64,000 bases of DNA from Promethearchaeota archaeon (GCA_030603385.1 JAUVXW010000005.1:64001-128000), one strand, 5' to 3'; shown: positions 36,381 through 57,158, counted from the first letter of the stretch. The notes: generated by a model not told the origin, from the letters alone. Made by a program: numbers and translations.

Positions 36381-36824
36381 TCATACAAAATTAAATAATT
36401 CAAAGAATTTTTCAAAATTCTGTACATATTTCTGAAATTGTTCTTTAATTAATTCATAATGAGTAAAATAACCTCTTTTTATACCTCTTATTATTTTCAT
36501 GCGTTCAAGTATTTTTAAATGATGAGAAATTGAGGATTGTGCTTTATCTAGAATTGCTTCCAATTCACATACACAATAATCTTTATCATTTAACAACTGC
36601 ACAATTTTAAAGCGGGTTTCATTTCCTAAAACATTGGAGAATCTCGTAAGATCTATTATACTTTTATTTTTATTTAATTTAATACCAATTTCTCTTAAGG
36701 TTTTAAAATAAGGTTCTATATCTTGATCTTGAAGATCAAAACATAGTTTCAGACTATTAATTATTTCAGCTTTTCTTTCGCTTTTAATTTGTATCACTTT
36801 CAAAATTTTACATATCGTATTCAA
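36381..36824 (-). CDS. arsR: ArsR/SmtB regulator (CVC As(III)-type site)
   Basis: LGNETRF, YCVCEL, QSSISHHL; divergent from acr3. Confidence 0.88.
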   Translation of the reverse strand: MNTICKILKVIQIKSERKAEIINSLKLCFDLQDQDIEPYFKTLREIGIKLNKNKSIIDLTRFSNVLGNETRFKIVQLLNDKDYCVCELEAILDKAQSSISHHLKILERMKIIRGIKRGYFTHYELIKEQFQKYVQNFEKFFELFNFV

Positions 36825-36950: not shown

Positions 36951-38012
36951 ATGAGTCAAAAAGAGAAAAAATTAGGTGTCTTCGAGAAGTTTCTTCCCAT
37001 ATGGATTGCCTTATGTATAGTGTTTGGAATTTTTCTTTCTCAGGTTGTCCCAGGTATAAGTGAGGTTATTGATGCTTTACAAATTGGTGGGATCTCAATA
37101 CCTATTGGTATATGTTTATTTCTAATGATGTATCCTGCAATGTTGAATCTTCAAGCATCAGAATTGAAAAAATTGGGGAAAACCCCCAAACCGATTATAC
37201 TAACTCTTTTTTCAAATTGGATTATTGCACCATTTGTTGGATTAGCGATGGCGCGAATATTTTTACAAGGAAATGAGCAATTAATAGTAGCAATTATACT
37301 TCTTTCAAGTTCACCTTGTACAGCTATGGTTTTAGTTTGGGGATGGCTCGCAAAGGGAAATCAAGAACAAAATGTGATTAATACTAGTCTAAATACGGTT
37401 ACCATTATTTTCTTATACGTTCCAATGGTAACATTATTGACTGGGATTCAAAATATTCCCATTAATTGGGTTCTTCTACTAATATCTCTATTTTATTTCA
37501 TTGGTCTTCCCTTAATATTAGGAATAATTACGAAAAAAATAATTATTGCAAGAAAAGGAGAAAGTTGGTTTTATGACACTTATGTCCCTCTAGTTGGAAA
37601 AATTTCTATAGTTGCTTTATTAACAACGTTAGTGGTATTATTTTCTCTAAATGGAAAAGCGTTAATAAATAATCCTAATCTATTATTACTTGTTTCCGTC
37701 CCACTCTTAGTGGGCTTTGTAATCGTATTGGGCTATAATATTCTAATAACTAAGATTTTTAAATTGAAATATCGGCAAGCAATAATTACAGTTATTATTG
37801 GGTCGTCCAGCCATTTCGAGATTGCAATTGCAACTGCTATAGCCTTATATGGGATTGGTTCAATAGCAGCTTTAGGAACTACAATGGGATTATTTTGGGA
37901 AGTTCCAGTAATGTTATCAATGGTGTATTTAGGAAGATACTTGGGTAAAATTGGTTTCTGGAAAGATTATAAAGAAGCAAATGAAGTCTATGGAAAACGT
38001 AATAAAGAATAA
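36951..38012 (+). CDS. acr3: Acr3 arsenite efflux permease
   Basis: FEKFLPIWI, MMYP, SPCTAMVLVW, SSHFEIAIA, EVPVML. Confidence 0.95.
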   Translation: MSQKEKKLGVFEKFLPIWIALCIVFGIFLSQVVPGISEVIDALQIGGISIPIGICLFLMMYPAMLNLQASELKKLGKTPKPIILTLFSNWIIAPFVGLAMARIFLQGNEQLIVAIILLSSSPCTAMVLVWGWLAKGNQEQNVINTSLNTVTIIFLYVPMVTLLTGIQNIPINWVLLLISLFYFIGLPLILGIITKKIIIARKGESWFYDTYVPLVGKISIVALLTTLVVLFSLNGKALINNPNLLLLVSVPLLVGFVIVLGYNILITKIFKLKYRQAIITVIIGSSSHFEIAIATAIALYGIGSIAALGTTMGLFWEVPVMLSMVYLGRYLGKIGFWKDYKEANEVYGKRNKE

Positions 38013-38078
38013 TTCAATAGGAATTTAATATAAATTAAAATTTTTTTATTTATTAAAATCAACAGGGGGTGAGTAGAG

Positions 38079-38435
38079 TTAAAAAACTTAAAATTTAAAA
38101 TATCTATTCCGATAAAAGGTCTACAAAGTGGAAAGTTATATGATATCAAGGCAAAGGATGATGCAAATTTTATTGAAGCTTTGGCATTAGTAGATAAAAA
38201 AGAGATGGAAAGTTTGAATAAACAAATATTTCCTCTCTATGAGGGATATATCCATAATTATCTTCAACTATTTGTAAATATAGAAGATGAGGTTATTTAT
38301 GATGATGTCGGCTTATCTCCATATGCTCCTGACGAGGAAGGTCTTTATCGAAAATTCAACCCAATAAGGGAAAATATCCATTTCAATTTATATCCTGACA
38401 CGATTATTGATTTACAACAAGATGTTGGATGTTGA
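38079..38435 (+). CDS. Hypothetical, MoaD/ubiquitin-like (beta-grasp) pattern ending Gly-Cys; possible Sec read-through of UGA 38433/38436 up to TAA 38543
   Basis: Frame is open from 38073 after a GGGGTGA RBS; ...DANFIEALALVD...LQLFVN...LYPDTIIDLQQDVGC-TGA-TGA; SECIS-like element downstream. Start codon uncertain. Confidence 0.6.
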   Translation, partial: LKNLKFKISIPIKGLQSGKLYDIKAKDDANFIEALALVDKKEMESLNKQIFPLYEGYIHNYLQLFVNIEDEVIYDDVGLSPYAPDEEGLYRKFNPIRENIHFNLYPDTIIDLQQDVGC

Positions 38436-38566
38436 TGAGAAAAAGTGAAAAGTAGATTAGACTTTGGTAAATTTAAAACAATAATTCGCACAAAATATGG
38501 TAAAAATAATGAATATTTTGCACATTATTTCAAAAGTAAATAAATAAAAAAGGAATAATTAAAAAA

Positions 38567-38625
38567 ATTGAATGAAATCTTTTAAAAAATGCTAGTGAAA
38601 GATGAACAATAGGATTGCGTCCTAT
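38567..38625 (+). promoter_or_regulatory. SECIS-like element (copy 2)
   Basis: ATTGA-ATGA-A-ATCTTTTA-AAAAATGCTAG-TGAAAGAT-GA-ACAAT: AUGA/GA core, 8-bp stem, 11-nt A-rich loop, then hairpin ATAGGA-TTGCG-TCCTAT; closely similar to the element after mvhD. Confidence 0.6.
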
Positions 38626-56394: not shown

Positions 56395-56868
56395 ATGGCT
56401 AGTGAGTCAAATAATGATATTAAAATTTTAGCTTTTCTCTGTTGGAAATGAGGTTATGGAGCAGGAGATATGGCTGGAACAATTCGTGCTCAATATCCTG
56501 CAACATTAAGACCTGTCAGAATAAATTGTACGGGAAGAGTAACACCCTCTCTGATGATGAGAGCGATAGGGAAGGGAGCTGATGGTGTAGTCGTGGGTGC
56601 TTGATATCCTGGAGAATGTGATTATGAAACAGGTAATTTAGTTGCTGAGAGAAACGTACAATATGTAAAAGAAATTTTAAAAACAACAGGTATCTCTCCA
56701 GAGAGAGTACAAATGTTTCATTGCAGTGCTGCTGAAGGACAAAAATTTCAAATTGAAGCTACAAGAATTTCAGAAGTAATTAAAAATTTAGGCAATAATC
56801 CCATTAAGGATTCAAAAAAATCTAACATTAAATCTAATGATCCAGTAGTTAAGAAAAAGAAAAATTAA
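56395..56868 (+). CDS. mvhD: MvhD/VhuD/FlpD [2Fe-2S] subunit, selenoprotein (157 aa; Sec at codons 19, 70)
   Basis: FLCWKUGYGAGDMAG..., INCTGRV, GADGVVVGAUYPGECDY.TGN, SAAEG; TGA at 56449 and 56602. Confidence 0.93.
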
Positions 56869-56872
56869 ACCG

Positions 56873-56933
56873 ATTGAATGAATCTTATGAGAAAATATTA
56901 GTCATATGATGACAGACCATATTGTAATGGTTT
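56873..56933 (+). promoter_or_regulatory. Eukaryote-like SECIS element in the 3' UTR of hdrA-mvhD
   Basis: ATTGA-ATGA-ATCTTATGA-GAAAATATTAG-TCATATGAT-GA-C: AUGA/GA tandem G.A core, 9-bp helix (one U.U), A-rich loop; then AGACCAT-ATTGTA-ATGGTTT hairpin. Confidence 0.75.
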
Positions 56934-57158
56934 CGGCTAATAATAATTTTTAATAAAGTTAATATCAATTAATTTGTACTCATTTTTTCATAATTATAAT
57001 CTTATTAAAATTTCCTTTAAGAAATTTCATTTAAGAGTTAAGTAAAAAGAAATTCAATAATAATTTTTATTTAAAACATTAACCAATCCAAAAAATACTC
57101 ATTCATAAAGAAAAAAAAAAAATTGTTTTTAATTTAATAATAAAAAATCGTTAATTAT

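Follow-up and report, generated by a model that had tools for sequence, protein, structure and literature searches.

The question raised by this locus is whether a short open reading frame (ORF), which by standard reading ends in Gly-Cys at two adjacent TGA codons, continues through both of them as the gene of a selenoprotein with neighbouring selenocysteine (Sec) residues. The ORF lies on the plus strand of a 64,000-nucleotide stretch of DNA from a Promethearchaeota archaeon (GCA_030603385.1, JAUVXW010000005.1:64001-128000), which was analysed as a whole and is called the window below; positions are counted from its first letter. An earlier note on this DNA had proposed a new selenoprotein with a Cys-Sec-Sec motif and a selenocysteine insertion sequence (SECIS) element of its own, and this proposal is supported by approximately 165 homologs, a coding tail behind the TGA pair, a covarying SECIS element and the presence of tRNA-Sec. 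The ORF is very probably a real gene for a Sec-Sec selenoprotein, the insertion of Sec at either UGA being deduced from sequence. The explanation as a whole, namely a beta-grasp Cys-Sec-Sec selenoprotein that is served by a SECIS of the Lokiarchaeota type (lokiSECIS) and widespread in Promethearchaeota (Lokiarchaeia), is considered likely.

As read from translation, homologs, alignment and structure prediction, the coding region spans 38073-38543 (156 codons, start uncertain). The Cys codon TGT (38430-32) is followed by the first TGA (38433-35) and the second TGA (38436-38), the three codons at 38430-38438 reading Cys120-Sec121-Sec122, and the frame then stays open for 34 codons (38439-38540) up to a TAA stop at 38541-38543. 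The positions of the TGA pair (38433-38438) and the stop and the length of the tail had been given in the earlier note, and all were verified on the sequence. The product would be a protein of ~155 residues, in which the last strand of a MoaD/SAMP-like beta-grasp domain leads into Gly-Cys-Sec-Sec and a helical tail of ~34 residues packs on the domain. Both adjacent UGAs would be read as Sec, the signal being a eukaryote-like, kink-turn lokiSECIS hairpin 28 nt past the TAA, and decoding would rely on the same tRNA-Sec machinery as that of the HdrA, VhuD and Prx-like selenoproteins of the genome.

The tandem UGA site and its reading frame

Homologs were searched for in six frames, reading through stops, in 400 genomes of the phylum, and were found in 139 of these, including 118 of the 134 genomes of the same taxonomic family, with members in six further families. 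Among the 150 matches listed, 148 carry two or three in-frame TGA codons; the remaining two cover the N-terminal part and do not reach the site, one of them being clearly cut off by a contig end. A further 17 more distant homologs (22-31% identity) have two TGA codons each and the motif [PT]D.G-C-U-U, which brings the homologs with a conserved tandem TGA to ~165 in all. All 29 distinct orthologs have TGA twice at the site, and the two UGA columns and the Cys column are invariant or nearly so in a 38-sequence alignment (A3). The family signature reads [P/T]-D-x-G-C-U-U, followed by the tail pattern R-L...F...L/I...F/Y-G......Y. Homologs ending at Gly-Cys with TAA or TAG had been named in the earlier note as an outcome that would speak against a selenoprotein; neither codon occurs at either UGA position in any of the homologs, in a genome whose long ORFs end in TAA in 71% and in TGA in 14% of cases. 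A reassignment of TGA to Trp or Gly was also considered and rejected, as TGA terminates those 14% of long ORFs, and the 'W' at the UGA positions of a few database proteins is a gene-caller artefact (wrong genetic code). The genome holds a tRNA-SeC gene (tca) as well as HdrA, VhuD and Prx-like genes with UGA and SECIS; the tRNA gene is located outside the window, in which ARAGORN found no tRNA.

Two paralog types differ at the motif, reading H-A-D-U-U and A-U-G-U-U, the latter with three Sec. Few relatives lack Sec. They comprise an Asgard protein that reads C-V-S here and a remote Cys-only clade from other archaea, in which the motif is G-C-I-T/S-E and the tail is shorter. Since these relatives read C-V-S or C-I-T/S, the Cys is common to all relatives and the Sec pair is found in the Loki clade only. 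A homolog, with ..PDAG-C-U-U-N.. at the motif, is also present at ~805.8-806.3 kb of NZ_CP042905.2 in the cultured Promethearchaeum syntrophicum MK-D1, which makes the claim testable in a cultured organism. Tandem gene pairs are frequent, with an A-U-G-U-U paralog followed by a gene of the G-C-U-U type and a SECIS for each (loci L011, L026, L029, L100, L106, L109 and L117). In genus g2 (genomes G145-G148; e.g. G147 contig 32: 26956-29272), the C-U-U gene and a Sec-containing vhuD are separated by at most 2-4 kb.

Behind the TGA pair, the differences among the 29 distinct orthologs fall mostly on third codon positions (2706, 1593 and 5456 at positions 1, 2 and 3, respectively). Where measurable, dN/dS is 0.05-0.21 for the domain compared to relatives, and 0.18 for the tail compared to locus L006. 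The 34-codon tail is coding and under purifying selection, and is predicted to be a helical part of the same polypeptide. The tail could also be imagined as a gene of its own, in which case a beta-grasp protein of ~120 residues would end in Gly-Cys at a double TGA, a peptide of ~32 residues would start from a GTG, and the hairpin downstream would be a terminator or unrelated. The fifth codon past the UGAs is indeed a Val codon, GTG in 26 of the 29 orthologs and otherwise rare in the gene; ORF calling gives a 32-residue GTG ORF at 38445-38543, and public gene calls all end at the first TGA. However, the three other orthologs have GTA, and in distant members the position is I, F, Y, L or T, so a separate downstream start is not conserved. 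Moreover, in no case does the frame change or any spacing intervene between the two parts, and both stops would be TGA in every homolog, compared to the 71% of TAA stops genome-wide. A SECIS model built from other genes fits the hairpin, the stem of which covaries, and structure prediction confidently packs the tail on the domain. An arrangement of two genes is scarcely credible.

The start of the gene is less straightforward than its end. A Shine-Dalgarno-like GGGGGTGA is found at 38065-38072, and GGAGGTGA-like boxes, equivalently placed in orthologs, precede the gene throughout the family, with the start position 6-8 nt downstream. ATG stands at this position in the distant homologs and in one close homolog, while most members of the same taxonomic family have ATT, GTT, GTA or GTC, and the group of the window TTA (38079-81 in the window copy). 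The in-frame stops upstream are the TAA at 38031-33 and the TGA of the Shine-Dalgarno box at 38070-72, and no ATG, GTG or TTG lies between that TAA and TTG 38181. Initiation at the latter, the first canonical start, would cost a fold that is predicted with confidence its first two strands and half of a helix; the model includes a strand at 3-11, upstream of TTG 38181. A TGA within the Shine-Dalgarno box is in frame in several species (window 38065-38081; L002-L030 region).

A real family with a copy in the window that is poorly expressed, or decaying for want of a usable start codon, would account for the TTA and the lack of a canonical start before 38181, and the weaker AA tail and basal mismatch of the SECIS described below would suit such a copy. 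Against this, the same TTA with identical Shine-Dalgarno spacing occurs in two other species (97% and 85% identity), dN/dS compared to relatives is low (0.05-0.21), and an AA-type SECIS is common to several orthologs. A non-canonical codon (ATT, GTT, GTA or GTC) is moreover found in most members of the taxonomic family, 6-8 nt behind a strong Shine-Dalgarno box, and would appear to be a property of the gene family. Because the codon at the start position is conserved among species under purifying selection, we read the sequences as pointing to unusual initiation, and a decaying copy is considered improbable. The non-canonical start codons may reflect throttled or non-canonical initiation.

The SECIS element behind the stop codon

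The original description defines a lokiSECIS by AUGA, a stem of 9 bp and a loop of 11 nt, in which the first nucleotides are adenines and the last is a G that mostly comes after an A (PMC4989117). The stem is followed by GA, or by AA in VhuU (PMC4989117), and this AUGA_AA variant is reported for VhuU plus other Asgard genes, e.g. some HdrA/FrhD (PMC4989117, PMC11227280). The candidate element begins at 38568, and its AUGA (38572-75) lies directly 5' of the stem, 28 nt past the TAA. Two 9-nt arms (38576-84 and 38596-604) form eight standard pairs and a basal A.G mismatch, at a position that is unpaired in 17 of 32 elements of the C-U-U gene family, and enclose an 11-nt apical loop at 38585-95, AAAAAUGCUAG (five A, ..UAG). 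The stem is followed by AA (38605-06), the published minority variant, which is also found in the orthologs L003, L004 and L008-L010. In AUGA, stem, loop, tail and position, 38572-38606 is a canonical Lokiarchaeota-type SECIS. An 'extra bulged A' ascribed to it earlier proved to be a register artefact, as the register of model and orthologs gives 9-nt arms, the basal A.G mismatch and then AA.

The earlier note had likened 38568-38607 to the element behind the selenoprotein gene mvhD (56874-56912) and had proposed a covariance model of SECIS elements for scoring the site. Such a model (R1) was trained on 30 VhuD, HdrA and Prx-like SECIS elements from this genome and 25 relatives, with no member of the candidate family among them. 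When R1 was run on the window with filters off, the reference lokiSECIS behind hdrA-mvhD (56875-56915, plus strand; three in-frame TGA codons in hdrA and two in mvhD) scored 55.8 bits and the candidate (38569-38609) 31.3 bits (E~1e-4), compared to 13 bits for the next match. A genome-wide search, in which only 150 of ~12,000 first-look candidates were scored, returned seven strong known elements and one weak match (22.9 bits, E 0.4); the candidate and its paralog on contig 34 are absent from this result because of a filter effect, a gap that is covered by the filter-free search of the window and by a pattern scan. In the latter, a strict pattern of the published lokiSECIS geometry gave 10 sites in the 3.9-Mb genome, compared to 1-3 in six first-order Markov-simulated genomes. 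Nine of the ten begin GA-AUGA and lie directly behind ORFs with an in-frame TGA (two Prx-like, three VhuD or HdrA-VhuD, one HdrA, one small membrane ORF, the candidate and the contig-34 paralog), and the suspicion that the element might also stand behind many non-UGA genes was not borne out. Both the R1 scores and the pattern counts place the resemblance to the mvhD element well beyond chance. Rfam at gathering thresholds gave no match in the window, a result of little weight as there was no match to any Rfam SECIS model.

The linkage between ORF and element holds across the family. A lokiSECIS-like hairpin starts at -1 to +31 nt from the stop in 38 of 50 family genes, the stems differing considerably in sequence, and R1 detects ~30 SECIS hairpins beside family genes. 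Compensatory changes on both sides are found at each of the nine stem pairs, and none of 500 shuffles reached the observed covariation, while 92% of the stem cells are paired compared to 45-61% with the partner slid. Fitting this alignment to the model favours pairing, but the divergence of the stems is too great for this to account for the result. As the pairing of ORF and SECIS is conserved, the alternative raised in the earlier note, an orphan SECIS left behind by a deleted gene, is rejected. With the tandem TGA conserved, the tail coding, the SECIS linked and covarying, tRNA-Sec present and no match in Pfam or NCBIfam, the gene is taken to represent a new selenoprotein family. The true stop of several family genes is itself TGA, which either precedes the AUGA by a few nt or overlaps with it.

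The second small hairpin reported behind the candidate is real (38609-38625, plus strand; 7 bp and a 3-nt loop by folding), and hairpins trail SECIS elements generally. The mean minimum free energy of the 32 nt downstream of the SECIS is -4.7 kcal/mol in this family and -4.4 kcal/mol in known genes, compared to -2.2 kcal/mol in the background. The second hairpin follows lokiSECIS elements after 2-4 nt and often has UGC in its loop (window 56866-56936, L055-L090); in VhuD genes, CCGA...UCGG on either side of the two hairpins could join them in a three-way junction. The accessible part of PMC4989117 holds no description of a second hairpin or junction.

Several points weigh against a Sec-Sec selenoprotein at this locus. 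We know of no demonstration in archaea that two adjacent UGAs are decoded. A literature search for adjacent Sec-Sec motifs returned mostly materials chemistry. Homologs had been expected to show a conserved downstream frame, a linked SECIS and an alternation of Cys and UGA; the first two were found, but no Cys is aligned to the Sec positions among 93 protein library representatives or the genome matches, and the usual Cys/Sec alternation is thus lacking. The core of the candidate SECIS, with its basal A.G mismatch and AA for GA, scores well under the VhuD elements, and the hairpin is AU-rich and folds at only -4.0 kcal/mol. Finally, the window copy has TTA, and none of ATG, GTG and TTG, where the start codon aligns.

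Fold, gene neighbourhood and possible roles

AlphaFold2, supplied with alignment A3 in which U was read as C, predicts one domain for the 156 residues including the tail, with a predicted local distance difference test (pLDDT) score of 91.7 and a predicted template modelling score of 0.88. The model is a five-stranded beta-grasp, in which the C-U-U loop exits the last strand and is followed by three tail helices with a pLDDT of 84-97. Foldseek and VIA-align returned ubiquitin-like/beta-grasp folds only, the best compact matches being SAMP1 (4hro; VIA Z 7.2, Foldseek probability 1.0, target TM-score 0.68), CysO (4n6e; Z 7.1) and MoaD (Z ~6). The model is a beta-grasp by these comparisons, and a Z of ~7 is modest and typical of any beta-grasp, indicating a common fold and not family membership. 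At the sequence level, no match was found in Pfam (E<=1), NCBIfam (E<=0.001) or the PDB.

The predicted fold and the reactive motif after the last strand are shared with MoaD, ThiS, SAMP and CysO, which raises the possibility of a ubiquitin-like sulfur or selenium carrier, in which the tail would be cleaved and the C-terminus activated in the manner of MoaD, ThiS or SAMP; alternatively, the Sec would donate selenium. SAMP1, CysO and MoaD are the nearest folds, and by fold alignment the motif appears to be located where the carriers bear their terminal Gly-Gly. Unlike in these carriers, however, there is no terminal Gly-Gly, and the 34-residue extension is conserved and folded onto the domain. 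The Pfam ThiS and MoaD models give no match, and no E1-like or JAMM gene was noticed among the frequent neighbours, although no search was aimed at them. Such a carrier is very improbable.

The immediate upstream neighbour of the Cys-Sec-Sec ORF, on the same strand, is the gene of an ACR3 arsenite efflux transporter (36951-38012; NCBIfam TIGR00832 acr3, 285 bits, above cut-off, and Pfam SBF), and an arsR-type regulator gene (36381-36824, minus strand; Pfam HTH_5 of the arsR family, E 7e-15) is divergent. At the contig-34 paralog, the order is ACR3, a 135-residue CxC protein, the paralog and a YdjM-type membrane protein. Many Promethearchaeota metagenome-assembled genomes have the order arsR | DUF166, ACR3, a CpaM::HgcA-like fusion (554 residues), an HgcB-like ferredoxin, a CxC protein (90 residues), the C-U-U gene, a thioredoxin-type ArsC and YdjM, which suggests that HgcAB-like machinery is linked to arsenic resistance in Asgard archaea. 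An example of this conserved operon, which occurs at many other loci, is L113 3236-10105 (JBHLOI010000004.1), and a corresponding site is G000 contig 12: 966-2630; the CpaM part is of the SAM methyltransferase type and the HgcA-like part is a corrinoid/membrane domain. The 90-residue CxC protein (..PLDACACEW..) is matched by no Pfam or NCBIfam model. An 'ArsM' label for a neighbour cluster of 23 loci was found to be wrong for most members, which are stand-alone proteins of 90-135 residues, their match being confined to the C-terminal CxC domain of a single ArsM fusion; no ArsM scores above cut-off in the genome of the window itself.

The Cys-Sec-Sec triad could form a three-ligand S/Se/Se site for a soft metal(loid), e.g. 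As(III) or Hg(II). Having captured the ion, the protein would hand it to the adjoining ACR3 exporter, or in relatives to a corrinoid methylation module of the CpaM-HgcA-like/HgcB-like type, and would be a selenium-based counterpart of ArsD-type chaperones and of the N-terminal Cys-Sec motif of bacterial HgcA. Similarly, the Cys-Sec motifs of bacterial HgcA, SaoL and MerT-type selenoproteins have been proposed as heavy-metal ligands (bioRxiv 10.1101/2022.07.06.499078). Judged by gene neighbourhood and chemistry, a metal(loid)-handling role of the ars-linked subfamily is the likeliest one and has about an even chance of being right, and a chaperone or hand-off mechanism specifically is put forward only tentatively. 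A selenium-based carrier that binds As(III), Hg(II) or Sb(III) via one S and two Se and delivers to both the corrinoid methylase and ACR3 is more doubtful still. If true, it would make the HgcAB-type machinery of Asgard archaea part of an ArsR-controlled, selenium-assisted system of metalloid methylation and export, and adjacent UGAs would be something that the eukaryote-like Sec system of these organisms decodes efficiently as a matter of course.

The placing of the gene in an arsenic locus holds for close relatives, which lie in ars operons, but not for the most distant members. Near the more distant members, CDF transporters (3), ArsR (2), ACR3 (2) and ArsP (1) are found; the distant homolog of MK-D1, in contrast, adjoins a fumarate-reductase-like flavoprotein and fatty-acid enzymes and no ars genes. 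This counts against a metal(loid) role, the case for which comes from the neighbourhood only, with related genomes as non-independent samples. The main rival to the metal(loid) site, likewise argued from neighbourhood and chemistry, is a redox role, in which Cys-Sec-Sec would cycle between selenol and selenenylsulfide or diselenide, and the protein would act as a small reductant, e.g. for ArsC or for the corrinoid/Fe-S module, or in a more general capacity. A vicinal Cys-Sec pair is redox-active in thioredoxin reductase, thioredoxin-coupled ArsC and the small CxC protein are often neighbours, and distant members including that of MK-D1 adjoin flavoprotein and acyl-CoA enzymes, not metal genes. 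Moreover, most known selenoproteins are thiol-type oxidoreductases (PMC13188914). On the other hand, the protein has neither a thioredoxin fold nor a CxxC/UxxC motif, the beta-grasp fold is without known oxidoreductase members of such type, and operons that join the gene to ACR3, ArsR, HgcAB-like genes and CDF transporters are found repeatedly, in several lineages. A redox role is a possible but doubtful explanation.

Comparison with known systems and further candidates

Known lokiSECIS selenoprotein genes include VhuD/HdrA, VhuU and Prx-like genes (Mariotti et al. 2016, PMC4989117; Huang et al. 2024, PMC11227280). The present gene resembles them in having a hairpin in its 3' untranslated region, with AUGA, 9-nt arms, an 11-nt A-rich loop ending in ..AG and a GA/AA tail, a few to ~30 nt past the stop, and in the service of one SECIS to more than one UGA. 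It differs in its unrelated protein family, its adjacent Sec codons and its AU-rich stem at -4 kcal/mol. The SECIS-first search of Mariotti et al. gave nothing further, and their lokiSECISearch used a filter of -5 kcal/mol (PMC4989117). This filter would exclude a hairpin at -4.0 kcal/mol, which may explain why the family was missed.

Another comparison is with the bacterial 'CU' metal-associated selenoproteins, i.e. the HgcA N-terminal extension, SaoL, SaoB/SaoC, MerT variants and MbdU (bioRxiv 10.1101/2022.07.06.499078; PMC13188914). As in these, the Cys and Sec are vicinal, database entries are cut at the UGA, and the context is one of metal(loid)s or HgcAB-type corrinoid methylation. The bacterial proteins differ in having a bacterial SECIS inside the coding region, other folds and one Sec per motif, whereas the candidate is a stand-alone, archaeal beta-grasp protein with C-U-U; no sequence relation to them was detected.

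Two further analogies concern mode of action. ArsD binds arsenic through Cys12-Cys13-Cys18, and shares with the candidate a small, soluble, ars-operon-encoded protein, vicinal chalcogen ligands and a proposed delivery of As(III) to a transporter. It differs in having a thioredoxin fold, Cys only and ArsA as a partner, and arsA is not among the frequent neighbours of C-U-U genes; the likeness is one of possible working mode and not of family. The comparison with the Gly-Cys-Sec-Gly tail of animal thioredoxin reductase, drawn in the earlier note, stands as a loose chemical likeness, in the order Gly-Cys-Sec and in vicinal S/Se chemistry. The thioredoxin reductase motif is a penultimate C-terminal element of a flavoenzyme. 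Here, the motif is internal and has a second Sec, and the protein that bears it is a beta-grasp without a flavoprotein domain, which continues past the motif into a tail of 34 folded residues.

The Asgard selenoproteome survey comprises seven families (PMC11227280), a list that is repeated in a 2026 review of prokaryotic selenoproteins (PMC13188914), and no C-U-U or beta-grasp entry appears in the Asgard and prokaryotic selenoprotein lists within the accessible parts of PMC4989117, PMC11227280 and PMC13188914. The claim that the protein is not among the known Lokiarchaeota selenoprotein families is thus upheld by these lists and by Pfam and NCBIfam. A profile search of a library of 1.8 billion proteins gave 93 representatives, most of them ending exactly at the first TGA and all named 'hypothetical protein' at the source, and more than 100 public genomes hold the gene cut at the first UGA under the label 'hypothetical'. 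The unusual features of this new family within a known recoding system are the adjacent Sec-Sec, the beta-grasp scaffold and the ars/HgcAB-like operon context. If the explanation is true, this would be an eighth, widespread Asgard selenoprotein family, and would show that families of the Sec-only kind are overlooked by homology-driven surveys. A natural, conserved pair of adjacent Sec under one eukaryote-like SECIS would also bear on the pre-eukaryote origin of processive Sec insertion.

The same approach yielded two further candidate selenoprotein families. At G000 contig 20: 5680-5907 (L060 1181-1408), a 76-residue ORF with one predicted membrane helix has an in-frame TGA (..GGSS-U-AC..) and a lokiSECIS 18 nt downstream (L060 1427-1467; R1 51 bits). 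Of 60 other genomes from the taxonomic family, 12 have weak homologs, all with an in-frame TGA, and the ORF may encode another unlisted selenoprotein. The second is a candidate multi-Sec selenoprotein family, represented by a 74-residue, Cys-rich, zinc-ribbon-like protein (CPDC..CENC) at L026 2099-2323 (G155 contig 53), the gene of which has four in-frame TGA codons and its own lokiSECIS (2328-2368). The gene lies directly behind two tandem C-U-U genes and is absent from the genome of the window. Its homologs occur in 20 of 135 genomes, all keeping the four TGA codons, and several adjoin C-U-U genes.

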